From Nemertoderma westbladi (Eukaryota; Animalia; Xenacoelomorpha): a DNA stretch of 64,000 bases. The notes beneath the pieces are model-generated. The model was not told the origin of the DNA, made no database searches, and saw only the letters and a list, made by a program, of their open reading frames with translations. Numbering within the stretch: the stretch's first letter is position 1; every line of letters starts with the position of its first letter. Below, piece after piece: positions 4,274 through 62,953 of this stretch. Location: contig JAUCBJ010008799.1 in assembly GCA_032718475.1 (NCBI GenBank), positions 100,145 to 164,144 of the forward strand. Reading direction: 5' to 3'. A program made the position numbers and the translations under genes.

Positions 4274-6820
4274 CTATCTGTTCCTCTGGGGATAGTTCCC
4301 CCTGGCGTCCTCTTCCCTGGGTCGTTTCTTGGTTACCACCGCTCCTCTGGGGTCCGCTTTCTGCTTTCGGACATTCGCCGCCACCTCCCTGCTGATTCCG
4401 GTTGTTGGCTCCTTGGGCGCTGGTGTTATTAGTGCCCGATATCGCTTCGCCGGTGGCCCCTCAGAGTGGCCCTGTTGTCTCCCTCTGGTGGCGTCCCATA
4501 GGATCATCTTCATTGCTCGCGGTACGTGCTCCGCCAAGAAATCCCTAAACTCCCCTCGGTTCTGTGGCGTCCACCTGTCCAAATATCTTTGTGTGTTCAT
4601 CACTCCGGCATACGACGCCGCCGTTGCTACCTCTTGATAGGTAAACGGTAGCCTCCGCTTTATGATTTCCATGTGAGCCTCCTGATTGATAAGGAAGAAA
4701 CCCCACTTGAACTCCTGGGCCTTCATGCGCTGGCGCGTCATGGCCCCGACGTCGGCCCACTCCTCGAATCTCCTGAACTTCTCTTCGTCGTCCATCCAGT
4801 CGCACTGGCGTCCGTAGTGTCCCCGAAAGTTGCACTTTGGACATCGGTTATGCAACCGTGGACACGCCCCCATCCTGTGGCTCGGCTCTCGGCAGTAGAG
4901 ACAAAAGGTTCCCTTTTGGAACCGGTACAAGCAGCTCCTTTCCTGGTGGGTCTGTCTCCCACAGTAGTCGCAGCCGAGTACCAATGTCTCCCGCCCCACG
5001 TCGTCTTTCGTCCCAAGCGATCTCCGCGGTCTGTGGAGTCGCTGGTAGGCGAACTTCTCCACGTTGGTGTCTCTGTCTACGTCGATCTCTCCGCCCCTCT
5101 CGGGCATCGTCTCCCCGAATACTATCCGTGGTGCCGTCCCCGGTTGCTCGCCCAACCTGATAGTGCTCCCCGCGAAATCCATCGCCGGCTCCTCGTGCAC
5201 CCAGGTCCGCTTGCCGGATCTGTTCCAGAAGGCCCTCGCCCCACTGGCCGTCACCACCCTTCCGCCAACCCAGTCCGTGTCCGAGTGGCCTATCCTCTCG
5301 ATGGGCGGCATCTCTCCGAACTCGTCGTCGTCGTCCTCCTCCTCTGGCAGTGGCTCCAACCCCGGTATCCCGATGGATCCACTATGTCCCTTCCCGCCTT
5401 GGCTCTCGCCCGTAGCTCTCCATCCCTCTAGCTCCCTTAACTTCCTTGGCGGTTGGTCGCCTTCGGCGCCCGCTGGTATGGGCATCGCTTGCAACCCCGA
5501 CGTCGACTGTTTCGGTGATCCCACCGTCCATCCCAGTTCTCGCCCTAGAGACTCCCCCGAACTCCCTGACGAAGTCCAATGAAGCTCGTCTAAGCCTGCC
5601 TGTTCCTCGAAGCCGTAACTCTGTGTCCTGGCCTCCTCTTCCCTCTCCTCTGCTTCTATCCTCTCCCGTCTAGCGACTTCTTCCAGTCGCTTTGCTTCTC
5701 GTCTATCCGTTTCTAGCTGCTCCCATCTCTGATACGGCGTATCTGTCTCCCCGTCTACCAGATGTCGGCTGTTGTAGTACACCGACTCGCCCTTCAGCCC
5801 CGGGTGGTCTACCAGACCGTCGAAGGCCATTTTAAAGGCTCTCCTGTAGCTTAGGGGTGATCCCGATAACAGAAATGCCGCTGGTTCCCTCTCGATAACC
5901 ACGGTCATAAATAAGTTAAGCAAACTTATCATCATCCAATCTTCCTGCAGGATATATCGCTTCTGATATACCTTTATCGCTCCTCTGCGGAATTGATATA
6001 CCTCTTGCTTTCCCGGTCTCGCTCCCCACTTTAGCGAGTTCGCTAGTTCTGCTCCGTATTCTTCCCTGAACTTCCCCCAGTCCATCGGTTTGTGGCACAC
6101 GAGCCCCAATAATTGGCCCATTGCCACCGCCCCGCATTGGCCTGTGTTTTCGACTACCCCCAACCCATCCGGTGCCGTCATAGCCATAAAGACCTTCTGC
6201 ATATCCAGGAGGTTGGTGGCGTCCGGACCGATGATTCTCTCCGCATCCTCGCGAATCGCCGATCCTACTTTCGTCGTCGACTTCTCTCTTACCAAGACTT
6301 GTACCGCTTTCGGTAACCGGTTTAATTTCGGCCCGTCCTTCTTCCCATACGTTCCTAGATCGAATAAGAAGATGTCCCCATTTGGCGCGGCCAAATGTAG
6401 GAGTATGGTCCTGGCCGACCCCGCCGATCCTCGTCTCGAACCCGCCTCGTCTTCCACGGTTCCCTCGTCGTCTAGGATCATATATCCTCCCCTGTTGACG
6501 GACTCTATGAATCTCTTCCAGTCCTTCCTCGGTGATTCCCTCGGGTACTTCGGAATCCCGAACTTCGCCTCGTCCCCTTTCACCACGTAGTGGAAGTGTT
6601 GGAAGATCGCGTTGTCCAGCGACGGCGTCCCGTAGGTCCCGACCAGCCGCTGTTCGTGCATCTCCCGGAAGTGATCCTGCAGCGCTCGTGCCGCGTGACC
6701 CCTTTCCAACCTCTCGTAGTATCCTCTCGTCTTCTCTTCCGGATGCCTCTCGGTGAAATCCACCAGTATCTCCTTTCCTCCTGACTCCGCCTTTCTCTTT
6801 CTGATCAATTTGCTCGCCAT
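4274..6820 (-). CDS. Accessory ORF: DEDDy (WRN/EXD/RNase D-like) 3'-5' exonuclease, coiled-coil/acidic linker, 3 CCHC zinc knuckles (~848 aa, open)
   Basis: ExoI YMILDDEG; LLHLAAPNGDIFLFDL; LPKAVQVLVREKSTTKVGSAIRED (ExoII); LLDMQ; QKRYILQED (ExoIII-like). Knuckles CDYCGRQTHQERSC, CLYCREPSHRMGAC, CPKCNFRGHYGRQC. Confidence 0.8.
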   Translation of the reverse strand: MASKLIRKRKAESGGKEILVDFTERHPEEKTRGYYERLERGHAARALQDHFREMHEQRLVGTYGTPSLDNAIFQHFHYVVKGDEAKFGIPKYPRESPRKDWKRFIESVNRGGYMILDDEGTVEDEAGSRRGSAGSARTILLHLAAPNGDIFLFDLGTYGKKDGPKLNRLPKAVQVLVREKSTTKVGSAIREDAERIIGPDATNLLDMQKVFMAMTAPDGLGVVENTGQCGAVAMGQLLGLVCHKPMDWGKFREEYGAELANSLKWGARPGKQEVYQFRRGAIKVYQKRYILQEDWMMISLLNLFMTVVIEREPAAFLLSGSPLSYRRAFKMAFDGLVDHPGLKGESVYYNSRHLVDGETDTPYQRWEQLETDRREAKRLEEVARRERIEAEEREEEARTQSYGFEEQAGLDELHWTSSGSSGESLGRELGWTVGSPKQSTSGLQAMPIPAGAEGDQPPRKLRELEGWRATGESQGGKGHSGSIGIPGLEPLPEEEDDDDEFGEMPPIERIGHSDTDWVGGRVVTASGARAFWNRSGKRTWVHEEPAMDFAGSTIRLGEQPGTAPRIVFGETMPERGGEIDVDRDTNVEKFAYQRLHRPRRSLGTKDDVGRETLVLGCDYCGRQTHQERSCLYRFQKGTFCLYCREPSHRMGACPRLHNRCPKCNFRGHYGRQCDWMDDEEKFRRFEEWADVGAMTRQRMKAQEFKWGFFLINQEAHMEIIKRRLPFTYQEVATAASYAGVMNTQRYLDRWTPQNRGEFRDFLAEHVPRAMKMILWDATRGRQQGHSEGPPAKRYRALITPAPKEPTTGISREVAANVRKQKADPRGAVVTKKRPREEDARGNYPQRNR

Positions 6821-7299
6821 TCCGAACACTCACTCGCTCACCTGCAAGGTGGTGCCTTACCAAGGCGCAATACAGATGAGTGATGTATCTAGGATGTTCT
6901 GTACGGTCCGATAATGGCCTATTCCTTACTTAACTGCGCCTTTTAGCCTAAATTATTACTAATTAATTCTGAAGCTAGTAAATACACCCTAATTTCGATT
7001 TCTGTCCGTTACTTTTATTATGTTCCAGAATAACTTTCCTAGTGTTGCCATAATTTGTAACTTTCAGCCCTATTCTATTTATTTTTAGTTATTTTAATTC
7101 TACTGTCCTACTACTTACTATTGCCTATGGATTATTCTATTCTCTAATCCACATTCTGGCCTACTCTGTGGGCCTGTGCAGTACAGCAGTATGCGTCGTG
7201 TGGCCACACGATTTACCCAGCTGTACTCATATGCCCCCCTCTCGCTACTAACTGCTAACTAATATCTATATCTTATATACCCTTTTACCTCTTACTCTC

Positions 7300-7990: not shown

Positions 7991-8174
7991 CTGCCTACTA
8001 ACTGCGTACCTACTATGTACTATTATTTTATTTTTATTTTTATTTTTTATGTGTGGGAAGGGCGTCTCGCCCTCAATCCCACCCCCCTCAGTCCAAACTT
8101 GGACGACTAAACTCATGACTAACTCCACTAAGGTGCCCCTTCTAACAGACAGGTAACACCTCTGCCCGCACCTT

Positions 8175-11100
8175 TTACGGATCTAACTCTTCCATCCCAG
8201 TCCAACCTATTGGACAACTCAGCGACCCAAGGGGTGATTCCTCCAGCAGGCAACTCTCCCACTGCCACCCTATAGGTCCTCTAATTCTTCGCTCCGCTCT
8301 CCTTGTCAATTCTGGTGGTCTTTTCTCCTGTCTTTGGAAATGCTGTCTGTTATTTATGTTTCTGATCTCGTGGTCGTCCCTTGGCGGCAAAGTGCCACCC
8401 TTCAACGTGTCACCCGGCGGTATAATGCCGCCCCTGTTCTTCTCCTTAATCTTAGATGCCACCTCTGCTGGCCTCCCCCTTAATATGTGTGCTGGCATTA
8501 AAGGCCTCGACGACCCCCGTTCGTCCTTCGGTATACACGATCTCTGCCCATGTAATGCCCCTTCGCACTCTGTCAGTCCCGCGTGCGTCTGCAGCACGCC
8601 TCCTACTTTCCCGGCTCCTTTGTCCATCACACGCCCACCCACGGGCTTCTCAGCCCCTGGTCTGGTCGTCTCAAGTCTTCTCCCTTTCCATTTAGTCCTC
8701 CTGCTCGGCCTCCCCCTTGTCGGCATGCCTCCCAACCGGACCGGCATCTCTTCCGGACACTCCTCCGGCCTGTCCCCCGGACATTTTGCCGTCCGCTCCT
8801 CTCCATCTCCATACCGATGCTTGCTGGGACTCTTGTTCCAACCCATCGTCTCTAGATCTTCTGCATCCATGCCATTCTCCTCCGCCCACTCTCTTGGTGT
8901 TGCTTCCACTTCTAGCTGTCTACCACTATTGCCCATCTCTGGCCTCTCCTCTATCTCGTCGACAGTTCCTGGCACCATGCATCCTGAACTCTCAGACACA
9001 TGGAATGGTATATTACTCTTAATTGGGCCTGTCAGTGTCCACCCGAATGGTGTTAATATCGCCACCGGGTCACACTGCTTGTCTTCGCCGAAGACCGTTT
9101 GCATTCTTTCGTGGGCCGTTGGGCAGTCCATTCCTACTATGATGGATACCTTCCTAACGTCCACGTCTGGGATTGAGAAGTCAATGTCGTCCAGGAATTT
9201 ATATTGCTCGACCTCGATGTTGGTTGGCCGCCTGGCATTGATATTAATTGACTCTATCACTTGGATGGGGTCGATGGTTGCCCCATAGTCGCATCCCGGT
9301 GCCACTGCTGCAATTGCGCACCGTCCTGTTCTCATCTCCAGGATCTCATCTTTGCTAGAGATGGTTGTTACCGCCATTCTGCTTGGCCTCGTTCTCAATC
9401 CTATCTCTTCGGCCACCCATTCCTCGACTAATGTGAAGGCAGCTCCACTATCAACCAGCATTAGTGTTGTTACTGATCGATTGCCTTCCCCAATCACTCG
9501 CACGGGTACTACTCCAAGTAACACCGTTCCTCTCTTCTTCGCCCCTACTGTGCTCGTTGCCATCGTTTGGCCTCTCCTTTGACCAAACTTGACCGGCTTC
9601 TCCTTGCATTCCCTTGCTCTATGTCCACTCATCACACATCGCGAGCAGATTTTATTGCTCAACGCATAATCTATCTGATCTTGCCTAGGTAGCGCCTGCC
9701 AGTACCTGCAGTTCATGGTTTGATGAAGCGCATTTGCGTGTAGCTGGCATTTGCTCTTTGGGTCGTAGCCCTCCTTATACAGCGCATTGCGTATCGCAGC
9801 TGCGTTTGTACCAAAGTCCCTACTATTCTTATTGTTTGGATTCGGCCTACTGGACGTACTGGGGTTATATTTATTCGTGTTGTTATTGTTCCCCTGTCCG
9901 TTCCATGGTGTTGTCTTATCTTCGGCTAGCTGTGGACTTGCAGTCCCCTGCGTCGCTGCATATGGCAATGATTGCCTGAGCCTCGGTAATGCGTTTGATG
10001 TATTGTGCTCTGGTTTCGGTCTATGGTAATCCGTCTTCGGTCCCTTTCCCAGGCTATCTTCGCTATAGACTGGGTCAGTTATTAGTTCAGCCTCGTAGTT
10101 TAAGAAGTTTGACATTTCTTCTAAACCCGGTTCCGCACCCTTCTTGTCTCGAGTGGAGAAAGCGATCTTCCTCCACTTGTTGCGCAGCCAGTTCGGTAGT
10201 GCCTGCGCTATCGTGGTGATGTTATTGGACGCGTTGAGCTCGTATGGCGCGTCTAGCGTCTTCAGCACGATTAGCGCCTTTTCGACTTTGTTAGCGAACG
10301 TCTTAATGCTAACGGGATTATCCTGTAGGCCACCCGATGTTATGCCTCTCAGTGTCTGTCTGATGATCTTGGCCGGGTGCCCGTATTCCCTGTCCAGTGC
10401 CCGCCATGCTGTCGTGAAGCCGCCCTCTATTCCTTGATATTGCCTCACGATATCGTATGCTGGGCCTCCCGTGTATACTTGCAGATACTTTAGGCACTCC
10501 GCCTGCGTCAAGTTTTTTGTTAGTATTTCGTTACTATACATGCGCCGAAACTGTAGATATTCTTCCGGCCTACTCCCATCGAATTTGAATGGTTCCACGG
10601 GTGGTAACTCGATCCTCGTTTTCAACGCATCGATCAACGTGGCCATCCCCATCGCCTGCGCTTCCAATGGATTCGATGGGTGCTGTATAGTTTCTCCTGT
10701 CTGGTGCGGTTCGTCCGTCCTATTTCTTGATTTTCTTTGACTTGGGTATGTCATCGGGGGTAGCGGCCCCCTCCATATCTCTGTGTCACACGACCTATTT
10801 TCATCCAAGGGTCTCGTTGTTCTTGCTCCTATCGGGGTATATTGTTGATATTGTGATGGGGGAATGTCACCCTGTCCCCCCCCCCACCGGTATGTTTGGT
10901 ACTGGGGTTGATGTTAATATATTGGGGCCCATACACCTATCCGCAATAATTCCCCCCTCCCCTGGGTATATGTTATGTCCCTGCATGCTGTAGTCATACT
11001 GCTGTACTGGTACCGGTATAGGCCTATCAGCTTCTGGCCTACTCGCCGGTATGTATTCCGCGACTTCCGGGTTTAATCCCGTTGTCCGCGCTATCCTATC

Positions 11101-14016
11101 GCCTACATTGCCTCTCTCAGTATGGCCTATGGTATGTGCAGTAAGGCCTACAGTATGTCCTACAGTCTGCATGTGTCGCTCGGGATCGAAGTTTATTCTT
11201 CTCGAATAGTCCTCCCCGTGGCTACCGTATTCTCGATCGGTAGGTACATTCCGTCGGAAAGTTTCTCTTCGACCCCCCTCTCTACTGTTCTCGTCTTCGT
11301 ACCGGTACATCGCGTACCCCTCCATCGGCGCGTAATGCACCTCACCAGGTCGCATCTCTCCGGGGTGACGGCAATCTCCCGGAGTCCGACCCTACTGACT
11401 CTCCGTTCTCATCTCGACTACCGACGGCTCGCTATCCGTCCTCGCTCTTCTATCGTTCGCGGCGATACTTTTACTACTGTCTTCTCTTCTTCTCCTTTCA
11501 GTGTAGTATTCCCGCTCGTGAGATCTCTCGTCGACCTCCTGGTTAAACCCCACTGTTCTTCTTCCCTCTTCTGATCGGGCTCGACGCTTCGTCCGCCCTC
11601 TCACGACGTCAACCTGTCTCTCTCTGCTCGGTCGCACGCCGCTGGGGATACTCCCAATCCCCCTATTACTCTCCGTTGCCGGGTGTTGCGGTTTACCTAT
11701 TTCGGCCCGCGCATTATCCGCTGACGGCTGTGGAGCACTCTCTGCCCCCCCCTTTCGCCGCTAACTCGCTGTTGTGGGGCTCTTTTAGCCCCCCCCCCAC
11801 TCGCCACATCTAACTTCGCTATCTCTCACCCCGCTACTATATCCCTCTCTCATCGACACATCAACCCTACCGCGGTCGGGTCTATTCACCCCCGCCTCTC
11901 CCTCTGCTATTGCGTGGCCTACCAGGCCCTCTACCTCCTGCCTACCAACTATGTGGCCTACCAGGCCCTCGCTGGGTCTACCCGACCCAGCCACTCCCTG
12001 CCTACCAACTACGTGGCCTACCAGGCCCTCTCTGGGTTGGCTCAATCCCGCCACTTCCGGCCTACCAATTGTACGGCCTACCAGGCCCCCGTCTGCCTGG
12101 CCATACACGCCCGACGTGTTTACGTTAATAGCACCCATATTGGAAACGGAATTAATTTGTTCGTTTGAAACAAAATCATTTGAATTATTTTGTAAATTCG
12201 GGCTTGGATCATTATTTAAATTATTTGAATTATTTTGCACGTTCAAATTGAAATTATTATTTGTACTTAAATTTAAATTACTGCTACTAGGTAAAGTATT
12301 ATTTGCTGCAATAAAAGGATTAGGGTTGTCCAATACGGTACTATTAATATTAATGACGTCTACTATAGCATTATTATTACCCCACCCCCCCCCCCCCCCC
12401 CCGCCCATACGGTCACACCAGTCTTGGGTCTGTCGTGCGGTCCCTGTAAGTGGGGTATTAATAAATGTATCCACGGCCCCTGGCTCCTCGAAAATACTCG
12501 AGCTAGCCCCACTCTCAGACGCCCCTACTCGCGCCAATTCCCGTTCGCGCGTATGTATAGCTTTGTATCCTGTAAGCTCACCTTGACGTCTTTCTAGTTC
12601 CTTTTGCTCACACTCCTTCCTTGCCATTCTCTCCTTACACTCCCGTGCGTCCCGTTCGGCCAATTCCAACTCTCTTCTAGCCCCCTCCCTTCATCTCGCC
12701 TCACGCTCTCTGCGTTCGTTTTCCTCTCTCGCCTCGCGTTCTTTGCACTCGTTTTCCTCTCTCGCCTCGCGTTCTCTGCACTCGTTTTCCTCTTTCGCCT
12801 CACGTTCCCTATGTTCCGCCTCACGCTCCTTGCGCTCAATTTTCTCTCTCGCTACACATTCCCTACGTTCCGCCTCACGCTCTTTGCGCTCATTTTTCTC
12901 TCTCGCCTCGCGCCCTTCTTGTTCCTTCCTCCCTACTTCCTCACACTCCCTAAGGCTTCTCGCGGCCCTTTCGGCCCTCTCTCCGGTTTCCTTAATCAAC
13001 GCCATTTCCCTCTCTAGCAGCACTCTCCCCTCCTCTAACCGTCTACCTACTTCCCTTTGACCTTGCTCTATTAAATCGAGACGGTACGTGGCATTTATCT
13101 CTCTCACCCGTCTTTCTTTCACGGAGGATGTAGCAGACTTATCGGTTGTAACGGATTCCCTCCGCCTCCCCGTCCTACTAACTTTCCCCCGCCTCCCGGA
13201 ACTTCCTCCGACCGACGAGGCCGAATCCTCGGGGTTAACCTCGGATTCGCCCTCCTCGGGTCTCTCCCAACCCACTAATTTTACTCCCTGGGCATCGACT
13301 AAGTATGGCCCTACGTACACTATGCTAGGTTCCATACCCCTACACCGCCATAGGTCATACAGTTCCTCGGCAACCCCTCTCGCTCTCTCCTTGGCCAGTT
13401 CTCTTTGCCCGAAGCGCATTAGATAATAAAAGTGTCTATTCGACTCACGTAGTCCTTTCTTTAGTTTTACCTTGTCTATCTTCGCCCCTCCTCTGGCCTC
13501 CTCTAATAGTCTCCGGGTCGCGTTGTAGGCCCGTCGAAGTCGATCAGAAACCCCGACGTCCTCGTCGCCGACCTCCCTTCCGTCTCTCCGGGTCCGGCGT
13601 CGTACCGTCGGCCCCACCGTCGCCGTTTCGGTGGGCCGCTCGTCGCCCTCGGCCTGTGGCTGGCCGGCGACGTCGGTACTGACATCTCCTCCATCTCTTC
13701 GGGTCCGGCGTCGTACCGTCGGCCCCACCGTCGCCGTTTCGGTGGGCCGCTCGTCGCCCTCGGCCTGTGGCTGGCCGGCGACATCAGTACGTCGACCCAC
13801 GTCTCGTGTCGACTCGTCTCCTTCTCCCTCCATCTCGCTCTCTCCTTCTCTCGGCTCGACCTCGGGTTCCAGGCGGCCCCCCTCATCCTGAGCTGCCGGA
13901 TGACCCGTTACCGATGGGTCCGGCATTGTGGGCCTGTACCGCCTGGTTGCGGCCTCGCGGATCGTTAACTCTTCGTCCGGGGTCCGCGTCGGCGTTGTCT
14001 CTCCCGACTGACTCAT
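8175..14016 (-). pseudogene. gag-protease of copy A with degenerate pol remnant (one stop plus frameshifts)
   Basis: ORFs 12691-14016, 11785-12669, 10867-11355 and 8175-10808. Contains FKFDGSRPEEYLQF (DUF1759-like), the CSRCVMSGHRAREC knuckle and LVDSGA protease. No YxDD RT motif. Confidence 0.9.
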
Positions 14017-14067
14017 CTCGCTTGGTGATTGGTGGCTGGTAGTTTAGCTAGCTAGGGCGGCAGCTCT

Positions 14068-14079
14068 GAGTTTAATTAC
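14068..14079 (-). promoter_or_regulatory. Non-tRNA PBS-position sequence of copy A (GTAATTAAACTC)
   Basis: Directly follows the 5' LTR. Complementary to the transcript of LTR 14261-14272 (11/12 match). No TGG tRNA-type PBS. Confidence 0.7.
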
Positions 14080-14627
14080 TGTGACGGGATCCAGGAAGGA
14101 TCCCGGTTTATCCGGTTGTTTAGTTCACGCGTCCCCGCCGTGTGTATGAAAGGTAAAAAGAGTTCGTGTCGTTCGTCGTATATAATGATCGGTTGTTCGG
14201 GTATATAGATATGAGTATAGATATATAGATAATATTGTCGTATACAGAAGGCGGGATACGGTAATTAAAGTCCCGGTCCTTCCCTAGCTAAACTAACTAA
14301 CCTAACTAGCACCAATATGATACTGAGATAACTGAACTGAAATGATTACTGCCAATTGGCTATATTGCACGGTTGGCCTTGTTACTCTACCTAATCGATG
14401 CCTTTCCCCCCTCTGATTGGTTGATACCCTTGTTGGCGCCCTTTGGAGTGTTTCCGTTCACTCCACCTGTTCTCTCTGGGTTAGGGGTTTGGCCCCTGAC
14501 CCTCATTGTGTTTCTCCTTCCCATTTTGTTGGGGTGACACGAGTTGGTGATTACCCAATCTCGTGGCCCCCAATATTGCTTATCGGCTTAACTTTATGGG
14601 GTGTTAGCGGGATTGAATAAGCTAACA
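14080..14627 (-). repeat. 5' LTR of copy A
   Basis: Direct repeat of 3010-3557, followed by TSD GTGAC. Confidence 0.95.
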
Positions 14628-23900: not shown

Positions 23901-24755
23901 TTTCATCAACAATGGATTAATAAAGGTATTTTTTTTATCCATAACATCAGAAACCTCCAACAAAACAGATTTCTTTCCTTTATTGAATTACAAGAAAAAT
24001 TCAATGTTTCCAAAAAAGACCATTTTTTCTACATGAGTGTAGTGGACGCCATTAATACTCAGTTAAGAACTGCGCTCAAAAAACAGGTACTTGGAGCTTC
24101 TGCGCCACTCTCTATGAACATAATTAACAAAGGTCGACGATCAACAAATACGGCATACAAATTATTTATAGATCAAATTGGTGAAACAAACACAGTAGCA
24201 AGTCAAAAATGGTGCTTAGAGTTACACACTGATGTAGATAAAATTTTGTGGAACAAATTTTTTCAAATGGCCAAAACAAATTCACGTGAAGTGAAAATGT
24301 GGTCCTTTCAATTCAAGTTACTGCACCGTAGGTTACCCACAAATACTTTGCTATTTAAAATAGGCATTTCATCATCAAACCTTTGTTCTTTTTGTAAAAC
24401 ACTCGAGGAAACTTATTTACATCTTTTCTGGGAGTGTGAAACTGTGAAAAAATTAATTGATGAATTTAAATTGTGGTGGTTAAAAAACACAAAACAGTCA
24501 TTAATTCTTACAAAGCTTTCAATGTTGTTTGGGTACCACACAAAAGTGCCGCCAATCATTAATTGCCTCCTACAGTTACTAAGATACTATATTTATTGCG
24601 AAAAATTCCAAAATACTCCGGCTCTACAAATGTCTGTTTTTCTACATCATGTTCGAAAAAATTTCCTTTATGAAAACTACATCGCAGTTCAGGAATCAAA
24701 AATTTACATTTTCGAGCAAAAATGGAAGCTAATCAATGATTACTTTTTAAGATAA
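20928..24755 (+). CDS. LINE ORF2p: APE endonuclease, RT and zinc finger (1275 aa, open)
   Basis: SLNCRGL, LQETH, GDFN, SDH (endonuclease); KSPGGDGF, QGCPLS, YVDD (RT); CSFC...ETYLHLFWEC. Confidence 0.95.
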   Translation: MANTPINIVSLNCRGLQKNIKRKVVFDKLTANNFDICLLQETHSSDSDCEAWSKQWKGHTVFTKKSSQSVGVAILFNENLQYKIIKKIVDPSGRFIILDVDINSTILTLVNIYNFNIDSSVLIKQIKNEMLNCFESVNVIWAGDFNCVLDITKDKFGGAPKTNEKVRCEVLETMENINLIDIYRSLHPNGISFSHRQKVFQGWVRTRKDFFLVSSSIASVTSKCGSVSGFYSDHSAVFLQFEIPNNWTNRKKGPGFWKHNNSLLTDEDYICLVKTTISDTVTEYKDNINPHLRWEMIKLNVRTKAISYGINKNKEKHKKRNRLEIEIENFHRREKFLSNSEMQSYQNAQNNLIKLEENEAQASMFRAKLQNYNAGEKPTKFFLNLEKSKSKNNTIHRLKTKRGESVTSDKEILNEAVQFYSDLYQSKKFNHCPILRDEQSSAFFTKCANLPKLDEMSKNFLDKNISELECLTALKEMSNGKSPGGDGFPTEFYKFFWTDIKKYVYESFLFSFEEQSLSVSQRQGIMSLFPKKDKIPSLIENRRPITLLNTDYKILSKALASRMKTVLVAIINSDQTGSVKGRYIGENIRRIIDTMDILDNSEQSGLVVMADFQKAFDSVEWDFLEQALKHFNFPDSFLTWFGILYNNNFKLVIQNNGYLSKSFVASRGVRQGCPLSAYLFVLAVEILAGVVRNTHEIKGLQMGNSNNIISQYVDDTNFFLQASAESLMALMEILGVFGNISGLKLNKSKTEVTWIGSMKNRASKICPQLRLKWLIPGEPFKILGILLSTNISSIECLNFPDALEKAKKIVEIWSRHKLSLLGRICIAKTLVLSKFTYLFACLENPSVNMQKNISDLLDKFIWAGKPPKLKKAVMINLYEVGGAQIPDLSTFIESQKVKWIQKLIENSHSVWKTLACTQLGDSVAKNLKWFVNLLPDDIKNIKVCKGNFWCNVLTVWCRINYAVRNGIDNDDFVNYQTIWLNSNIKIDSKPLFHQQWINKGIFFIHNIRNLQQNRFLSFIELQEKFNVSKKDHFFYMSVVDAINTQLRTALKKQVLGASAPLSMNIINKGRRSTNTAYKLFIDQIGETNTVASQKWCLELHTDVDKILWNKFFQMAKTNSREVKMWSFQFKLLHRRLPTNTLLFKIGISSSNLCSFCKTLEETYLHLFWECETVKKLIDEFKLWWLKNTKQSLILTKLSMLFGYHTKVPPIINCLLQLLRYYIYCEKFQNTPALQMSVFLHHVRKNFLYENYIAVQESKIYIFEQKWKLINDYFLR

Positions 24756-25888: not shown

Positions 25889-26494
25889 TGTGAGCGGATT
25901 CAATTCCGCCCAGCACCCCATAAAGTTGGGAAGTGGCGCCTTTTAGCAATATTGGGGATACGAGGTTAATCCCAAATTAACCTCGTATCACACACCCAAT
26001 AAACGGGGACAACAAACCCTGAAGGGCCACACAAAGGGAGGTCAGAGGTTAAACCTCCGGGAGAGGAAAGTGACAACAGCGGGGGGGGGGGGGGGGGGGG
26101 AACACTCCCACAGAGGTGAGAGCCGAGAATTAGGTTATTGGCCAATCAGAGCCAGGAAATGCATCCGCTAGGTACAAGTGCCACAAGTAATGTAGCTAAC
26201 CAATATATATTACCGGTCAATATCCATCAGTAGTTCAGTTATCTCAGTCACACAGGGCAGTACGGTGACACTTTAACACCGTCACCGCCGTCACCAAGTA
26301 ATATCATCATATCACATAATACCGGTCAACTGTGCTATCTTTTATTTCAACTTATATCGTATTCTATATCATATTATCGAACGCATATTATTAACAATAT
26401 TGGAAGAACTATAACAACAATAAACTCTTTTCATTCGCACGGCGGGGACGCGTAAATAAACCAAATCCAGTCGGGATCCCCTGATCCCGTCACA
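25889..26494 (+). repeat. 5' LTR of copy B
   Basis: TGTGAGC...GTCACA. Contains CCAAT boxes, TATATA near 26204, a TCAGT initiator-like cluster at ~26227-26249, and AATAAA at 26419 and 26455. Confidence 0.95.
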
Positions 26495-26504
26495 GTGTTA
26501 AAGT
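26495..26504 (+). promoter_or_regulatory. Non-tRNA PBS-position sequence of copy B (GTGTTAAAGT)
   Basis: Exact reverse complement of ACTTTAACAC at LTR 26270-26279. Confidence 0.75.
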
Positions 26505-32280: not shown

Positions 32281-32776
32281 GAGGATATGTAATATATAGT
32301 ATACAGTAAGATTTAGTAAGAGTTAGTAGAAATTAGTTAGTAAAGTTAGTAGTGAGTAGCGAGAGGGGGGCACGTGGGTACAGCTGGATAGATCATGTAG
32401 GTCACACGAGACATACTGCTTTACTACACAAGCCCATAGAGTAGGCCAGAATATGGATTAGAATAGAAAAATCCATTAGTAAATAGAATAGCACAGATGT
32501 AGGATTAAAATAAATATTAAAAAATTAGAAGTTAGACAAATTATGGTAACAGTAGGGAAAATATTCCAGAATATAATTAAAGTAACGGACAAAATTACGA
32601 AATTTAGAAGAAATTAGCACTTTTAGAAAATAAGGTAGGAAAATTAGGCAATAACCTGACATTCAGAGAGAGATAGGCCATTATCGGACCGCACAGACCA
32701 TCCTAACTACATCACTCACTTATATTGTGCCTTGGCAAGGCCCCACCTCATAGGTGAGCAATCGGGAGAGTTCGAA

Positions 32777-35349
32777 ATGGCAGAGAAACTTGTTCGAAAG
32801 AGAAAGCGGAGTTGGGAGGAAAGGAGATACTGGTGGATTTCATCGAAAGGCATCCGGAAGAGAAGACGAGGGGATACTACGAGCGGTTAGAGAGGGGTCA
32901 CAAAGCGCGAGCGCTGCAGGACCATTTCAGGGAGATGCACGAACGGCGACTGGTCGGGACCTACGGGACGCCGTCGCTAGACAATGCAATCTTCGAGCAT
33001 TTCCACTGCATGGTGAAGGGAGACGAGGCGAAGTTCGGGATTCCGAAGTACGCAAAGGAGCCACCGAGAAAGGATTGGAAGAGGTTCATAGAGTCCGTCA
33101 GCAGGGGAGGATACATGGTCCTAGACGATGAGGGGACTGTGGAAGACGAGGAAGGTTCGAGAAGAGGATCGGCGGGGTCAGCCAGAACCATACTCCTACA
33201 TTTGGCCGCGCCAAATGGGGACATTTTCCTATTCGACCTGGGAACGTATGGGAAGAAGAACGGGCCGAAGTTGAACCGGTTGCCAAAGGCGGTGCAAACC
33301 CTAGTAAGAGAGAAGTCGACGATAAAGGTGGGATCGGCGATCCACGACGATGCGGAGAGGATCATCGGTCTGGAGACCCCCAACCTCCAGGACATGCAGA
33401 TGGTCTACATGGCTATGACAGCGCCAGACGGGTTGGGACTAGTAGAGGACGCAGGCCATTGTGGAGTGGTGACGATGGGCCAGCTAATGGGGCTCGTATG
33501 TCACAAACCAATGGACTGGAGTAGATTCAGAGAGGAGTACAGAGCGGAGTTGGCAAACTCGCTGAAGTTGGGAGCGAGACCGGGGAAGCAAGAGGTGTAT
33601 CAACTCCGGAGAGGAGCGATAAAGGTATATCAGAAGCGATATATCCTGCAGGAGGACTGGATAATGATAGGTTTGCTAAACCTATTCATGACCGTGGTTA
33701 TCGAGAGAGAACCAACGGCATTCCTGCTATTGGGATCACCCCTGAACTACAGAAGAGCCTTCAAAGTGGCTTTCGAGGGTCTGGTAGACCACCCGGGGCT
33801 GAAGGGCAAGTCGGTATACTATAATTGCCGATATCTAGTAGACGGGGAGGTGGATACGCCATATCAGAGGTGGGAGCAGCTAGAGGCGGATAGACGAGAG
33901 GCGAAGCGATTGGAAGAAATCGCTAGGCGAGAAAGGAGGGAGGCAGAAGAAAGGGAGGCGGAAGCTGGAGGAGAGAGCTATGGATTCGAGGAACAGGTGG
34001 CCTTAGACGAGCTACACTGGACATCAGGGAGTTCGGGCGAGTCTCTAGGGCGAGAATTGGGGTGGACGGTGGGATCACCGAAACAGTCGACATCGGGATT
34101 GCAGATGATGCCCATACCAGTGGGCGCCGAGGGCGATTTCGCGCAGGGAAGGCCATGGGAACTGGAAGGATGGAGAGTCACGGGCGAGAGCCAAGGTGGG
34201 AAGGGTCACAGTGGATCCACCGGGATACCGGGATTGGAGCCACTCACAGAGGAGGACGAGGATGACGACGAGTTCGGAGAGATGCCGCCCATCGGGAGGA
34301 TCGGCCACTCGGACACGGACTGGGTTGGCGGGGGGGGGGGGGGGGGGGGTGGTGACGGCCAGCGGGGCGAGGGCCTTCTGGGATAGACCCGGCAAGCGGG
34401 CCTGGGTGCATGAGGAGCCGGCAATGGATTTCGCGGGGAGCACCATCAGGTTGGGCGAGCAACCGGGAACGGCACCATGGGTAGTATTCGGAGAGAGATG
34501 CCCGGGCGGGGCGAGGAGATAGACGTGGACAGGGACGCTAACGTCCAGAAGTTCGCTTACCAGCGACTCCACAGACCGAGGAAATCGCTTGGGACAAAAG
34601 ACGACGTGGGGCGGGAGGCATTGGTACTCGGCTGCGAGTACTGCGGGAGGCAAACTCACCAGGAAAGGAGCTGCTTGTACCGATTCCAGAAAGGGACTAG
34701 CTGTCTCTACTGCCGCAAGTCGAGTCACAGGATGGGGGCATGTCCACAGTTGCACAAGCGGTGTTCTAAGTGCAACTTCCGGGGGCACTACGGACGCCAG
34801 TGCGACTGGATGGACGACAAGGAGAAGTTTAGGATCTTCGAGGAGTGGGCCGATGTCGGCGCCATGACCCGGCAGCGGATGAAGGCCCAGGAATTCCGGT
34901 GGGGCTTCTTTAATATTAACCAGGAGGCCCAACTGGAGATCATCAAATGGAGACTTCCGTTTACTTATCAGGAGGTGTCAACAGCGGTGTCGTATGCCGG
35001 AGTGATAAATACGCAAAGGTATTTGGACAGGTGGACACCACAGAACCGAGGAGAGTTCAGCGATTTCTTGGCGGAGCATGTGCCGCGGGCTATGAAAGTG
35101 ATCCTATGGGACGCCATTAGGGGGAAACAACAGGGCCATTCGGAGGGGCCACCCGCGAAGCGATACCGGGAGCTAATAACACCAGCGCCCAGGGAGTCGA
35201 CGACAGGAATCAGAGAGGTGATGGCGAGGATCAGGAATCTAAAAGGGGATAAGAGCAAGGGAGCGGCAACGGCCAGGAAACGACCGAGGGAGGAGGACGA
35301 CAGAGGGAAGGAGTTGAGATGGTTCCCAAAGTCAGGTGAAACGAACTAG
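32777..35349 (+). pseudogene. DEDDy exonuclease/zinc-knuckle accessory ORF of copy B (frameshifted)
   Basis: ORFs 32812-34386, 34196-34522 and 34477-35349 are highly similar to the ORF in A; all motifs retained. Confidence 0.85.
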
Positions 35350-36045: not shown

Positions 36046-36641
36046 TGTGAGCGGATTCAATTCCGCCCACCACCCCATAAAGTTGGGAAGTGGCGCCTTT
36101 TAGCAATATTGGGGATATGAGGTTAATCCCCAATTAACCTCGTATCACACACCCAATAAACGGGGACAACAAACCCCGAAGGGCCACACAAAGGGAGGTC
36201 AGAGGTTAAACCTCTGGGAGAGGAAAGTGACAGCAGCGGGGGGGGGGGGGGAACACTCCCACAGAGGTGAGAGCCGAGAATTCGGTTATTGGCCAATCAG
36301 AGCCAGGAAATGCATCCGATAGGTACAAGGGCCACAAGTAATGTAGCTAACCAATATATATTACCGGTCAATATCTATCAGTAGTTCAGTTATCTCAGTC
36401 AAACAGGGCCGTACGGTGACACTTTAACACCGTCACCACCGTCACCAAGTAATATCATCATATCACATAATACCGGTCAACTGTGCTATCTGTTATCTCA
36501 ACTTATACCGTATACTATATCATATTATCGAACTGGATTAACAATATTGGAAGAACTATAACAACAATAAACTCTTTTCATTCGCACGGTGGGGACGCGT
36601 AAATAAACCAAAACCGGTCGGGATCCCCTGATCCCGTCACA
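36046..36641 (+). repeat. 3' LTR of copy B
   Basis: Direct repeat of 25889-26494 with a shorter poly-G run and scattered substitutions. Confidence 0.95.
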
Positions 36642-49341: not shown

Positions 49342-49913
49342 TGTGACGGGATCCGAGAATCCCAACCGGTTGTTTTATTTACGCGTCCCCGCCATGTGTG
49401 AAAAGAGTTTGTTGTTGGATTGAGAGTTCTGATGTTGTTGATCGATATGTATAAATATAATAATAGAGTAAAGCATAGACACAGTTAATGGATTGTAGGA
49501 TGTAAAAATACCGGTAAAACAATTGGTGATGGTGGCGGCAACGGTAATAAAAGTTACCGTTCTGCCCTAACTGAACTGACTAAGCTAAGTGAATGAATGA
49601 GAAACGTCAATAGGTAATATACTGCTCTAGGTTGGCCGTATTACTCAGCGGATGCCTGCCCCCCATTGGCTAGTAACCTAATTCTCGCCTCCCATCTCTC
49701 TGGGAGTGTTTTCCCCCGCTACTGTCACTCTCTCTCTCTCCCGGAGGTGTAACCTCTGACCCCCATTGTGTGTGGCCCTTTGGGGTTTGTCGTCCCCGTT
49801 TATTGGGGGTGACACAAGGTTGATTGGCAATCAACCTCGTACTCCCCAATATTGCTTAAAGGCACCGCTTTCCCAACTTTATGGGGTGGTTAGCGGAATT
49901 GAATTCGCTAACA
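49342..49913 (-). repeat. 3' LTR of copy C (572 bp)
   Basis: TGTTAGC...GTCACA on the - strand. AATAAA at 49374-49379. Confidence 0.93.
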
Positions 49914-50613: not shown

Positions 50614-53138
50614 CTAGTTCGTTCCACCTGACTTTGGGAACCATCTCAACTCCTTCCCTCTGTCGTCCTCCTCCCTTGGTCGTTTCCTGGCCGCTGCCGC
50701 TCCCTTGGCCTTATCTCCCTTCAGACTCCTGACCCTCGCCGTCACCTCTCTACTAATCCCCGTCGTCGACTGCTTGGGCGCTGGTGTTATCAGCTCCCGG
50801 TATCGCTTCGCTGGTGGCCCTTCCGAATGGCCCTGTTGTTTCCCCCTAGTGACGTCCCATAGGATCACTTTCATCGCCCACGGCACATGTTCCGCCAAGA
50901 AATATCTGAACTCTCCTCGGTTCTGTGGCGTCCACCTGTCCAAATACCTCTGCGTATTTATCACCCCGGCATACAACGCCCTGACGACGAGTGGGCCTCC
51001 TGGTTAATATTAAAGAAGCCCCACCGGAACTCCTGGGCCTTCATACGCTGCCGTGTCATGGCGCCGACGTCGGCCCACTCCTCGAAGATCCTAAACTTCT
51101 CTTCGTCGTCCATCCAGTCGCACTGGCGTCCGTAGTGCCCCTGGAAGTTGCACTTCGAACACCGGTTGTGCAACCGTGGACACACCCCCATCCTGTGGCT
51201 CGACTCGCGGCAGTAAAGACAACTAGTCCCTTTCTGGAATCGGTACAAACAGCTCCTTTCCTGGTGGGTTTGCCTCCCGCAGTAATCACAGCCGAGCACC
51301 AATGTCTCCTGCCCCACGTCGTCTTTCGTCCCAAGCGATCTCCGCGGTCTGTGGAGTCGCTGGTAAGCGAACTTTTGGACATTGGCGTCCCTGTCCACAT
51401 CTATCTCCTCGCCCCTCCCGGGCATCGTCTCTCCGAATACTACCCGTGGTGCCGTTCCCGGTTGCTCGCCCAACCTGATGGTGCTCCCCGCGAAATCCAT
51501 CGCCGGCTCCTCATGCACCCAGACCCGCTTGCTGGGTCTATCCCAGAAGGCTCTCGCCCCACTGGCCGTCACCATCCTCCCGCCAACCCAGTCCGTGTCC
51601 GAGTGGCCGATCCTCCCGATGGGTGGCATCTCTCCGAACTCGTCGTCATCCTCGTCCTCCTCTGGGAGTGGCTCCAACCCCGGTATCCCGGTGGACCCAC
51701 TGTGTCCCTTCCCACCTTGGCTCTCGCCCGTGATTCTCCATCCTTCCAGCTCCCCTGGCCTCCTCAGTGTATAATCGCCCTCGGCGCCCGCTGGTATGGG
51801 CGTCGTCTGCAATCCCGATGTCGACTGCTTCGGTGATCCCACCGTCCACCCTAATTCTCGCCCTAGAGACTCGCCCGAACTCCCTGATGATGTCCAACGA
51901 AGTTCGTCTAAGGCCGCCTGTTCCTCGAACCCGTAGCTTTCCCTTCTTGTTTCCTCCTCCCTTTCTTCTGCCTCCCTCCTTTCTCGCCTAGCGATTACTT
52001 CCAATCGCTTCGCCTCTCATCTATCCGCCTCTAGCTGCTCCCACCTCTGTTATGGCGTATCCACCTCCCCGTCTACTAGATATCGGCAATTATAGTATAC
52101 CGACTCGCCCTTCAGCCCCGGGTGATCTACCAGACCCTCGAAAGCCACTTTGAAGGCTCTTCTGTAGTTCAGGGGTGATCCCGATAGCAGGAATGCCGTT
52201 GGTTCTCTCTCAATAACCACAGTCATGAATAGGTTTAGCAAACCTATCATTATCCAGTCCTCCTGCAGGATATATTGCTTCTGATATACCTTTATCGCTC
52301 CTCTCCGGAATTGATACACCTCTTGCTTCCCCGGTCTCGCTCCCCACTTCAGCGAGTTTGCCAACTCCGCTCCGTACTCCTCTCTGAATTTACTCCAGTC
52401 CATTGGTTTGTGACATACGAGCCCCATTAGCTGGCCCATCGCCACCACTCCACAATGGCCTGCGTTCTCTACTAGCCCCAACCCGTCTGGCGCTGTCATA
52501 GCCATGTAGACCATCTGCATGTCCAGGAGGTTGGGGATCTCCGGACCGATGATCCTCTCTGCATCGTCGTGGATCGCCGATCCCACCTTTATCGTCGACT
52601 TCTCTCTTACTAGGGTTTGCACTGCCTTTGGCAACCGGTTCAACTTTGGCCCGTTCTTCTTCCCATACGTTCCCAGGTCGAACAGGAATATATCCCCATT
52701 TGGCGCGGCCAAATGCAGGAGTATGGTTCTGGCCGACCCCGCCGACCCTCTTCTCGAACCTCCCTCGTCTTCCACGGTCCCCTCATCGTCTAAGACCATG
52801 TATCCTCCCCTGCTGACGGACTCTACGAACCTCTTCCAGTCCTTTCTCGGTGGTTCCTTTGGATACTTCGGTATCCCAAACTTCGCCTCGTCTCCCTTCA
52901 CCACATAGTGGAATTGCTCGAAGATCGCGTTGTCTAGTGATGGTGTCCCGTAGGTCCCGACCAGCCGCTGTTCGTGCACCTCCCTGAAATGGTCCTGCAG
53001 CGCTCGCGCTTTGTGACCCCTCTCTAACCGCTCGTAGTATCCCCTCGTCTTCTCTTCCGGATGCCTTTCGGTGAAATCCACCAGTATCTCCTTTCCTCCC
53101 AACTCCGCATTTCTCTTTCGGACAAGTTTCTCCGCCAT
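50614..53138 (-). pseudogene. DEDDy exonuclease/zinc-knuckle accessory ORF of copy C (premature stops, small deletion)
   Basis: ORFs 52050-53249, 50961-52004 and 50614-50976 are homologous to those in A and B. Confidence 0.85.
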
Positions 53139-53659
53139 TTCGAACTCTCCCAATCGCTCACCCGTAAGGTGGTGCCTTGCCAAGGCGCAATACAGATGAG
53201 TGATAAAGTTAGGATGGTCTGTGCAGTTCGATAATGGCCTATCTCTCACTGAATCTTAGGTTATCGCCTAATTTTCCTACCTAATTTTCTAAACGTGCCA
53301 AATTGTACTAAATTTCGTAATTCTGTCCGTTACTTTAATTACGTTCCAGAATATTTCTCCTACTGTTACCATAATTTGTCTAATTTCTAATTTTATTTTA
53401 TTTTAATATTTAATTTAATCCTACTACTGTGCTATCAGTATTCCGCCAATGGATTATTCTATTTTATAATCCACATTCTGGCCTACTCTGTGGGCTTGTG
53501 CAGTACAACAGTATGCGTCGCGTGGCCTACACGATTTATCCAGCTGTACCCACGTGCCCCCCTCTCGCTACTCACTACTAGCTCTACTAACTTCCTAACT
53601 AATCTCTACTAACTCTCACTATATTTTATATTATACATACCCTCCTACCACTAACTCTT

Positions 53660-54328: not shown

Positions 54329-57300
54329 CTACGGTGCGCCCTCTAGAAAGCAGCACTTCCCTACAGCCCTCCTGTAGGTCCTCCTATCTTTCGCTCCTAT
54401 CTTACCACCTATCCGCACTTCTACCGATCGGACTCTTCCATCCTCATTGGAGTAAGTGCCCACAACTCTCGCCAATCTCCATTGGTTGTTGATGATGGTA
54501 TCGTCCGTGACGATCACCAGATCACCCTCCTTCAACTCCCTATTTGTATTTCTCCACTTGCTTCTCCTGTGAAGTGTGGGTAGATATTCCTCGACCCACC
54601 TCCTCCAGTATTCCGCGCTTATCGCCTTGGCGACTTTCCAACTCTGTCGGGAGTGTATATTGTCTGGGTCTACACCCCGCATGTCAATGGTCGCCGGCCT
54701 CTCCATTAGAAAGTGACTGGGTGTCAGCAAATCTAATGACTCTGGGTCATCATTTTCTGGATATAGCGGTCTGCCATTAATGACACCCTCGCACTTCGCT
54801 AGTACTGTCCTTAGCACGTCTTCGGTTACCATGTGGGTGTTCATCAACTTCGTCATTAGACGCTTTGAACTACCCATGAGTCTCTCGACGCATCCTAGAG
54901 TATGCGGAGCATACGGCGTCCTCCTCTCCCACTTCACCTGTCATCTTCTCATGGCTGCCCTGACTTCCTCCCCTTCCATGATGTCCAAGGCATCTGCCAG
55001 CTCGTTCTCTGCCCCCACAAAGTTGGTTCCGTTGTCGGAGTATATTACTGCGATCGTCCCACCTTTGCGGTCTCTGAACCTTTCTAGGGCATTGATGAAT
55101 GCCGATGCGGTTGCATCTTGGGCGAGTTCTATCCCTACCGCCCGCGTGTTGTTACATACGAAGATAATGCCGTAGCGCTTCTCCGTGTGTCGCATCACCT
55201 TAATCTTTATCGGCCCGAACATATCCACACCGCAGTGCGTGAATGGCGGGTCATGCTGTCTCACCCTACTGGCCGGTAGTGGCGCCATCTCCTGTATGGC
55301 TCGCTCCTTCTTCGTTCGTCGGCAGCTCTGGCACTGCCCCACTACCGCCTTTACCTTCTTTCTTAACTGTTTGACCCAAAAGGTCCTTCGTATCTCCGTG
55401 AGGGTTCGGTTGGTGCCCCTGTGCAATATCGACTTGTGGGAGTCCCAGACGATCTGGTGGACTATCGGCGATCCATTAGGGATGATGATGGGCTTTGGTG
55501 GAATGATGATACTGTTGTTGTTCAACACCCTAGAGTTCATTACTAAGATTCCATCATCATTGAGTTGTGGCGACAGCGCGATCAGCTCACTGTCCCGTCG
55601 GAGATGCTGTTGTTTACCGACGCGTTCCACCTCGTCGCCGTAATTCTTTCTCTGTTCGTAGCGGATGACGGACTTGGCCGCTCCCTCCAGATCGATGGTT
55701 GTTTTATTTTTTATGTCTTTGCCGACTCCCTTGAGGAAATCCCCGAAGCCTCTCAAGTACGCCACTAAATTCTTGGTCTTGTACCAACTTGAGCTGTAGC
55801 TAAGGAGTTTTTCCATCGGGTTATCGCACAGTTCTTCCAGTTTTGGTTGCACGTTCCTTATCTCCCTCACCATCTGGCTATATATCTCTTCACCCTCTGA
55901 ATCTCCTCCCTCTTCCTCTCTGCCGCTCCATATGCCTCCAATGACGCATCGGAGAACATGTGTAGATCCAGATTCGTCATGTCCCCATTCGGGAAATACA
56001 CCCTTGGCATGCTGTATGTCCCCATCTGTTCTAAACTCTCTGTCCACTTACTCCATTGCTTGCTGATCTCTTCCGGGACCTCTGTATCCCATTCCTCCTT
56101 TAGTTTGTATACTTTCTTAAGTATCTGTTTCCCTGTGACTAGTAATGGGGATGCTAGGCCTAGGGGGTCGTATATCCTTGCTATGTACGACACATAGCCC
56201 CTCTTTGTCTGGATGTCTGCGCCCTCTTGGCTCAATTGGTACTTCAGTTCGTCTGTCTCTCAGTTCCACACGATCCCTAGTGCCTTCTGTTGGGACTCTA
56301 TCCTCTTGTTCGCCATGTCCTGTCCCTTGGCTGTCGTGGGATTATCCATGGTCGATTCTGGCCTCCTGTCTTCTATGGCTTTGATAAATTCTTCCGAACT
56401 GGATTGGAACTTGGTCAGGTTAAAGCCGGATCCTTTAAGGATGTCGCGAACCTCGCGCCCTTTATCCAGTAGTTCCTTAACCGTGTTTCCTGACTCCATG
56501 CCGTCGTCTACATAGAAGCCGCGTCGAATCATATCGACGGCTTTGGCGCTGTATCTCTCTTCTTTCCCTTCTACTGTGTCTCTTACGGCCACAGTCATCG
56601 TAAATGAAGACGACTTGGCTCCCATATTCTGCACCACCATCTTGTACATCGGTATTGTCGACGGTTCCTCGTCGCCGTTGTACCATAGGAAGCGCTGACT
56701 GTCGCTATCCTCTTCCGTTACACGGACTTGGTTGAACATGCCTTCGATGTCGCAGGTGAAGGCGTGCTTCCCGTTCCTGAATCTAAGTAGGACCTCGATC
56801 CCTGAGTTATAGATATTGGGACCCTCCAGCAGATAATCGTTTAGGCATTTGCCGTCGGTCTTGGCCGATGCGTCAACTACCATCCGCAGTTTACCTTTCT
56901 TCGGATCTAGAGCCACGTGGAGTGGCAGGTAATAGGTCCTGTCCGTGTTCGGTTCATCGACCGGTAACTCCACGGCCCATCCTTTCTCGACATACTTCCT
57001 AATCGTCTTATGATAGTACTCATTCTTTTCGGGGCTCCGTTTTAGCGTTTGCTTCAACTTACGAAGCCTCGTGAGTACCATTCCTTTGTTGTTGGGTAGC
57101 GGTAATTTTGGCTGTTTCCATACCATCCCTATGGTATACCGCCCCTCGTCGCATGTCATCGATTCCTTTACGCTTTGTAAAGCCTGTTTATCTTCCACCG
57201 AGGTTCTGACCCCGGTCTCTTTCAATCCCTCAAAATCCTGCCTGAGCAGTCTCCTGAGCTGCTCCTCCGCTCCCTCATCTCCCATCTCTCGCATAGTTCC

Positions 57301-62722: not shown

Positions 62723-62733
62723 ACTTTTATTAC
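62723..62733 (-). promoter_or_regulatory. Non-tRNA PBS-position sequence of copy C (GTAATAAAAGT)
   Basis: 11/11 complementary to the transcript of LTR segment 49544-49554. Confidence 0.75.
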
Positions 62734-62953
62734 TGTGACGGGATCCGAGAATCCCGACCGGTTGTTTTATTTACGCGTCCCCGCCGTGTGTGAAAAGAGT
62801 TTGTTGTTGGATTGAGAGTTCTGATGTTGTCGTCCCCGTTTATTGGGGGTGACACGAGGTTGATTGGCAATCAACCTCGTACTCCCCAATATTGCTTAAA
62901 GGCACCGCTTTCCCAACTTTATGGGGTGGTTAGCGGAATTGAATTCGCTAACA
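62734..62953 (-). repeat. 5' LTR of copy C with ~350-bp internal deletion
   Basis: Both ends match 49342-49913 and are joined at a TTGT microhomology near 62826-62830. Confidence 0.9.

Follow-up and report, generated by a model that had tools for sequence, protein, structure and literature searches.

Candidate self-priming in a BEL/Pao retrotransposon family and predicted splice-built primers among its relatives

Introduction

The retrotransposons Tf1, Tf2 and Tj1 have no tRNA-type primer-binding site (PBS), and their PBS instead complements about 11 nt of their own R region (PMC7175516, PMC4600332). Self-priming has been reported or predicted for the Tf1/sushi group, Tcn1 and TAR (PMC6317226, PMC4600332), and hairpin priming has been argued to be possibly ancestral to LTR elements (PMC3601003). 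The replication of BEL/Pao elements is poorly understood and officially described as tRNA-primed, the ICTV profile of the Belpaoviridae giving an 18-nt PBS for host tRNA-Arg or tRNA-Gly in elements of 4.2-10 kb (PMC8742986). Searches of mostly open-access literature, by title listings and abstract openings, brought up no report of BEL/Pao self-priming or of splice-built primers; term look-ups in four BEL/Pao papers (PMC554778, PMC3118150, PMC6238403, PMC8220671) returned nothing on PBS type, and PMC12440569 gave no match. Here we analyse one 64,000-nt stretch of DNA from Nemertoderma westbladi (hereafter, the window), in which an initial annotation had proposed self-priming for a BEL/Pao family.

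Results

Three related BEL/Pao elements lie in the window

Three LTR elements of 10.8-13.6 kb in the window are related to one another: A (minus strand), B (plus strand) and C (minus strand). The 548-nt 5′ LTR of A (14080..14627, minus) and its 3′ LTR (3010-3557, minus) are 99.3% identical, and A transposed recently. The 606-nt 5′ LTR of B (25889..26494, plus) shares 94.6% identity with its 3′ LTR (36046..36641, plus), and C has an internally deleted 5′ LTR (62734-62953, minus; 62723..62953 with its PBS) together with a 3′ LTR at 49342..49913 (minus). Because the LTRs have TG..CA ends and are bordered by exact 5-bp target site duplications (TSDs; GTCAC for A, ACTAG for B, CACAC for C), their ends are fixed without reference to any pairing. 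These TG..CA LTRs and 5-bp TSDs, together with a polypurine tract, are as expected of BEL/Pao elements. In C, a domain search recovers a DUF1759 gag followed by protease, RT and integrase, ordered as in BEL/Pao, within a gag-pol region (54329..59270, minus) that is interrupted by stops and frame changes; its RNase H, in a region spanning a break, is not recognised by Pfam. Among 2736 candidate proteins, the RT of C finds 27 matches at E 1e-40 or better, with 33-40% identity, of which 25 contain PF05380 and the other two PF03564, all BEL/Pao-type Pfam domains. By structure and by the pol of C, the three elements belong to BEL/Pao, and the Ty3/gypsy chromovirus RT and integrase of the Tf1/sushi group are not found. 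In an RT quick IQ-TREE (its careful tree search unfinished), an RT FastTree and an integrase FastTree, all built without named references, the window family forms a long, unstable branch; viral contigs contained no relatives.

RT, RNase H and the integrase core are absent from A and B, which keep gag and protease (in A, a DUF1759 gag and protease at 8175..14043, minus) and are non-autonomous. At the site expected for RT, RNase H and integrase, A (8114-8953) and B (30791-31681) carry a common replacement segment, and a faint integrase C-terminus remains. This replaced segment marks an old non-autonomous lineage that retains gag, protease and an extra exonuclease open reading frame (ORF). Between integrase and this extra ORF, all three elements contain tandem arrays of 35-75 nt units whose period varies by copy (7242-8000, 31849-32351 and 53562-54214). 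Elsewhere in the window, a fourth BEL/Pao element of another family, D (39423-47955), encodes a Peptidase_A17 domain and has no recognisable PBS within these coordinates; its flanking 558-nt direct repeats, 99.6% identical, lack TG..CA ends, intrude into the integrase end and do not look like its LTRs. LINE-type elements with endonuclease and RT occupy 15004-17542 and 18535-24755, one ORF2 being open over 1279 codons, and C itself is inserted within LINE-like sequence (63000-63400).

The post-LTR bases of each copy match its own LTR

None of the three copies has a TGG start after its 5′ LTR, as the initial annotation had noted, and none carries the 18-nt host-tRNA PBS of the ICTV profile, which most relatives lack as well; such a PBS is a descriptive trait, not a phylogenetic definition of BEL/Pao. 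The 64,000-nt window contains no tRNA and no Rfam family. The annotation had further claimed that the bases following each 5′ LTR complement a site within the element's own LTR, and its coordinates and letters proved exact on rechecking. In B, the PBS (26495..26504, plus) and the anti-PBS (26270..26279, plus; copied at 36421-36430 in the 3′ LTR) pair perfectly over 10 nt. In A (minus), 14068-14079 pairs with 14261-14272 at 11 of 12 positions, the single mismatch leaving a 9-nt perfect run, and a second 12-nt block, 14040-14051 with 14284-14295, is also present, so that the paired features span 14040..14079 and 14261..14295. In C, the PBS at 62723-62733 (minus) pairs perfectly over 11 nt with 49544-49554 in the 3′ LTR, and here the original claim holds in part, for the internal deletion has removed the site from the 5′ LTR. 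The pairing runs end 181 (A), 215 (B) and 202 (C) nt from the LTR end, in agreement with the earlier estimate of ~180-215 nt, and in all three copies the duplex ends at the first post-LTR base, flush with a boundary set by the TSDs. The resulting arrangement, in which the PBS complements the R region of the same element and sits flush at the LTR end, is of the Tf1 type, and self-pairing accounts for part only of the GTC/CTC end of the PBS.

The pairing is specific for the element's own LTR. Within the same element's LTR, the post-LTR bases find a perfect complement of at most 9 (A), 10 (B) and 11 nt (C), and perfect runs in the LTRs of the other two copies reach only 5-6 nt. Dinucleotide shuffles attained the observed run in 24 (A), 5 (B) and 1 (C) of 5000 trials.

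Both sides of the pairing change together

The sequence of the duplex differs by copy and the pairing is retained, as had been claimed, with a diagonal PBS-by-LTR matrix and two-sided changes in contigs. Between A and C, a T/A change has occurred on both sides; B is set apart from C by a substitution on both sides together with the deletion of one base. When public contigs are mapped on A, both partners of PBS pair 5 are switched family-wide from A-U to G-C: by depth, 14075 A>G is found in 17702/21827 (X1), 15596/18000 (X3) and 165/245 (X4), that is 81, 87 and 68%, and its partner change, 14265 T>C, in 39057/56769, 37540/44849 and 340/340, that is 69, 84 and 100%, the two positions being counted separately and unphased in runs from three studies, of which X1 may be the source sample. 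At PBS position 5, and at the base that pairs with it, A thus departs from most copies of the family and represents a minority A-U variant. A second PBS variant, at 14073, would make a G-U pair; it comes from part of the variants on A, which number 85 more. A further run, X5, contributed a single 31-nt aligned piece, and on the PBS side of B coverage is too thin for a paired variant comparison. Altogether, the PBS/anti-PBS pairing has undergone at least three separate two-sided changes.

Contig depth on A and B peaks over the anti-PBS module and over the LTR end and drops 40- to more than 100-fold between them, which identifies these two regions as conserved islands; the anti-PBS island of B starts at about 26236. 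Chance complementarity inherited from one ancestor would have in its favour that the matches are short and AT-rich and that the three copies are related. It is nevertheless very improbable, in view of the two-sided changes, a shuffle tail of 0.0002-0.005 per copy and the recurrence of the same pattern in relatives described below (junction matches, GTAAG donors and the L072/L073 pair).

A predicted three-helix junction surrounds the putative primer end

In B, a TATA-like box (26204-26211) and initiator-like TCAGT words at 26227, 26235 and 26244 mark a predicted transcription start (26204..26248, plus) 35-75 nt upstream of the predicted primer end. Folding of a 294-nt native stretch of B predicts helix P1, the anti-PBS/PBS duplex in which 26270..26279 is the 5′ arm, with p 0.97. 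Immediately past the predicted primer end begins the 5′ arm of helix P2 (26280..26291, plus), which is predicted with p 0.88 to pair with a 12-base arm at 26439..26450 (plus) that all three copies have kept. Just before the LTR end, a hairpin in U5, P3 (26472..26489, plus), is predicted with p 1.00; among the copies its stem is kept and its loop varies. P2 and P3, which lie within the conserved islands, are also predicted in A and in the C 3′ LTR. In A, folding favours extended pairing of the 5′ region with the leader (p 0.92), and P1 has p 0.0 in the predicted ensemble, enforcing it costing 5 kcal/mol; the P1 region of A holds the minority A-U variant plus one mismatch. Compared with shuffles, the whole R-U5-leader fold is more stable in A (z -3.07) and not in B (z -0.98).

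The anti-PBS of B had been placed in the loop of a CGGTGAC/GTCACCG hairpin. The inverted repeat exists, but its pairing has p 0.0 in the folded R-U5-leader RNA, because its bases are taken by long-range helices, and we rejected a local hairpin that displays the anti-PBS.

The leader-ward extension of the duplex toward the gag start, about -41 kcal/mol in A and -27 kcal/mol in C, would suit a real structure that serves translation or splicing control or dimerisation, with priming by another route. We regard this as improbable: a structure of that kind leaves unexplained why the duplex stops, in three of three copies, at the first post-LTR base, the start required for a correct LTR end, and A, B and C contain no other PBS.

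Most relatives match their own LTR across a predicted intron

A metagenome scan with an RT alignment yielded 489 related stretches, of which the best 80 were kept; 32 of these were readable, with a usable LTR end and body, and 48 were dropped as too short, without an LTR or family repeats. The LTR ends of 12 loci were set by LTR-pair alignment and those of the other 20 were picked from terminal repeats or position after the pattern had been seen, a possible bias. A tRNA-type TGG site occurs in two of the 32 (L052 and L075), where the self-match of 4 nt amounts to none; the PBS of L075 (3257-3275) equals the tRNA-Met PBS of metazoan GalEa copia elements as quoted in PMC5445492. No tRNA was detected in the 21 loci, out of the 80, that were searched.

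Two of the 32 loci (L004 and L014) have a contiguous 10-11 nt match to their own LTR, like the window family. In most others the contiguous match is 5-7 nt and starts right after a pyrimidine tract that ends in AG. When any GT..AG intron of 40-450 nt in the LTR was allowed, 23/32 loci reached a PBS match of 10-15 perfect pairs only across a GT..AG junction, as compared with 54/1186 cross pairs, and the same held for 10 of the 12 loci with firm ends. An own-LTR match of 10 nt or more, contiguous or across a junction, is thus seen in 25/32 readable relatives, and the match is weak, absent or unreadable in 5/32. Donors that had been chosen by pairing alone read GTAAG in 16/27 loci versus 31/1216 GT sites of the same LTRs, and acceptors are more pyrimidine-rich (median 0.68 versus 0.53), figures that overstate independence since some of the 27 loci are related. 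L072, which is 90% identical to its sister L073, lacks exactly the predicted intron of L073 and has the matching PBS. This locus, the sole ready-made junction for the 23 predicted ones among the best 80 of 489 loci, is a spliced RNA assembly or an intron-loss copy, and either way it demonstrates use of the predicted splice sites. The exact difference lies in L072:1-190 compared with L073:480-900 and 7730-8083, and in L073 the donor of the 5′ LTR contains 3 inserted nt that the donor of the 3′ LTR lacks.

Judged by these alignments, the self-match is not peculiar to the window family and is common to a broad BEL/Pao set, mostly across a predicted intron. In its frame the window family agrees with the joined primers (their end reads AC then CG, and the PBS starts GT) and therefore reads as the intronless state of this wider trait. 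L014, one of the loci with a contiguous match, is nested among intron-bearing loci in trees. An intron beside the anti-PBS of A, B and C themselves was considered and rejected, as the match is not improved by any junction and an acceptor with a polypyrimidine tract is missing upstream. In the intron-bearing relatives L027, L040, L079, L024, L030, L055, L036 and L060, the PBS is flush with the LTR or follows a spacer of 2-4 nt, and this grouping tracks two polypurine-tract types.

These relatives also bear on whether a host tRNA half or small RNA primes the elements, while the self-pairing conceals the PBS in a helix that serves regulation or packaging. Half-tRNA priming is known from copia elements (PMC6317226), and by eye the PBS of C agrees at 8/11 positions with the half-tRNA-Lys PBS of fungal FunCo1 (PMC5445492). 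The agreement falls to 5/11 in A and 4/11 in B, however, the PBS changes by subfamily in step with the LTR site, and the PBSs of the relatives are many unrelated sequences, each matching its own LTR junction, which no one tRNA can fit. Host small-RNA priming is accordingly unlikely, though a little less so than a structure with no part in priming.

An extra 3′ ORF encodes a predicted DEDDy-type exonuclease

After the integrase position, A, B and C each contain an extra ORF of about 850 codons. It is open in A (4274..6829, minus; 851 codons stop to stop), broken and in two frames in B (32758..35349, plus) and in two pieces in C (50961..53255, minus), and combines a predicted DEDDy-type 3′-5′ exonuclease fold with Cys/His zinc knuckles. 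Pfam names no domain in it, and a word-index protein search found no relative. A full HMMER search recovered 79 distant relatives through the zinc-knuckle part; 2 of 39 scanned relatives match PF01612 (3′-5′ exonuclease) below the cut-off, and the N-terminal halves of the relatives align with the DEDDy motifs. By alignment, D-x-E, D and Y..E/D are present, the last position being shifted or Glu, as in some relatives. An AlphaFold model (mean pLDDT 64) has as its top Foldseek hits Egalitarian, RNase D, Nibbler and EXD2 at E 1e-5 to 1e-4, so the ORF is predicted to adopt an RNase D-like DEDDy exonuclease fold. Over ~300 codons its dN/dS values are 0.09, 0.11 and 0.33, the pattern of purifying selection, which holds even for A with its missing RT, RNase H and integrase. 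Among the recovered proteins, P0028-P0106 make up an unnamed, widely distributed family whose members, 500-1000 aa long, combine a DEDDy exonuclease with zinc knuckles at the C-terminus; of ten that were checked, several sit on contigs of 7-19 kb, the length of an entire retroelement.

As a sub-case of self-priming, this exonuclease could trim an RNA 3′ end back to the P1 duplex, whether this end stems from the R copy at the 3′ terminus of the transcript, from a roughly made cut or from a short transcript of the LTR. The idea draws on the RNase D/Nibbler/EXD2-like fold with its acidic active-site residues kept, on the purifying selection and on the anti-PBS being present in the 3′ LTR as well. 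Against it, the exonuclease domain occurs in none of the best 80 of 489 BEL/Pao loci (L059 gives one weak match to the full-ORF profile; the alignment of extra-ORF relatives is too variable for a locus scan), yet 25 of the 32 readable ones self-match, so the exonuclease is not needed for self-priming generally. P2, lying just 3′ of the primer end, would also impede a single-strand exonuclease, and DEDDy ORFs occur in unrelated retroelements with no stated role in priming (PMC5408684). Trimming by the element's own exonuclease is thus a doubtful refinement, and a role of the ORF in either primer trimming or countering small-RNA silencing is speculation.

Discussion

We consider Tf1-like self-priming, with a predicted primer of 35-75 nt rather than the first 11 nt, to be the best explanation for the window family, at a probability of roughly 0.8. 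It is well supported by inference from the own-LTR specificity, the matched genomic changes, the conserved islands and the presence of the same trait in relatives, within the bounds of three full copies, all related, and a 5′ LTR site lost from C. The self-priming originally proposed is upheld to that extent, and the predicted geometry is unlike that of Tf1. The further proposal of an origin independent of Tf1 is tentative, the window family being a long branch without firm placement in the trees and hairpin priming having been argued to be possibly ancestral to LTR elements (PMC3601003). A known mechanism is thus likely to operate in a superfamily described as tRNA-primed.

In the proposed mechanism, the capped 5′ terminus of the transcript would fold back on the PBS and leader, and P1 (primer/PBS), P2, which begins at the base that follows, and the U5 hairpin would meet in a junction. 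A cut at the P1/P2 step would yield the primer, possibly by the RNase H of the element's RT, as suggested by Tf1; for A and B, RT RNase H would have to be supplied in trans. RT would then extend the primer through U5, and plus-strand synthesis would copy the primer into a new PBS. In this way a change at the LTR site would be passed to the PBS, which would explain the PBS/LTR covariation. Tf1 cDNA does carry PBS copies (PMC11042837).

In the intron-bearing relatives, splicing of the LTR intron would assemble the primer. If the cap-proximal intron were spliced and the 3′ copy mostly retained, the intron would be kept in progeny, and occasional splicing of the 3′ copy would give rise to intronless lines. 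Such a splice-built primer in BEL/Pao, with no exonuclease role, is probable on the sequence comparisons, and we hold it nearly as firmly as self-priming in the window family. A composite history, in which a broad BEL/Pao lineage dropped tRNA priming for a spliceosome-assembled primer and the window family then lost the intron and captured a DEDDy exonuclease that finishes the primer 3′ end, seems rather unlikely; if true, a primer built by the spliceosome and finished by an exonuclease would be a priming route without a described counterpart.

If self-priming is confirmed, BEL/Pao would be the third LTR superfamily to use it, and self-priming would be common in animals rather than exceptional. 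A splice-built primer would tie reverse transcription to first-intron splicing and poses the question of how the 3′ LTR intron is retained. Priming free of tRNA would evade the silencing that PBS-directed 3′ tRNA fragments bring about (PMC7472051), and element finders that require a tRNA PBS will overlook such BEL/Pao elements.

As to described systems, the window family resembles the Belpaoviridae in its LTRs, polypurine tract, gag, PR-RT-RH-IN order and RT (33-40% identity to BEL/Pao proteins), and departs from their profile in lacking a tRNA PBS, in its length of 10.8-13.6 kb and in having, at the possible place of env, an exonuclease ORF. An exonuclease ORF is also present in some nematode BEL/Pao elements (Cer). 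The window contributes a BEL/Pao family that is intronless and carries an additional gene for a predicted DEDDy 3′-5′ exonuclease, subject to purifying selection, A and B being without RT, RNase H and integrase. The bdelloid elements Juno and Vesta share a DEDDy RNase D-like ORF3 but are gypsy elements, for which no link to priming is drawn (PMC5408684). Fungal GalEa copia elements likewise have a structure, the 'conserved hairpin site', instead of a tRNA PBS, but this hairpin is local, lies downstream of the LTR and has no LTR complement (PMC5445492). TAR (Houba/Osr-1) copia and Tcn1 gypsy elements of plants are, like the window family, predicted from sequence to self-prime, in other superfamilies and hosts (PMC6317226). 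The closest parallel is Tf1/sushi, with which the window family shares the absence of a tRNA PBS, a complement of about 11 nt in its own R region, helices beside the duplex and the need for cleavage at the duplex end, the last two as predictions in the window family. Tf1/sushi elements belong to Ty3/gypsy, however, and the window family to BEL/Pao; the Tf1 primer consists of the first 11 bases (PMC7175516), whereas that of the window family is predicted to end 35-75 nt in and to have a longer leader duplex. Finally, Tf1 has no described intron, whereas many BEL/Pao relatives would require splicing for their primer to match.
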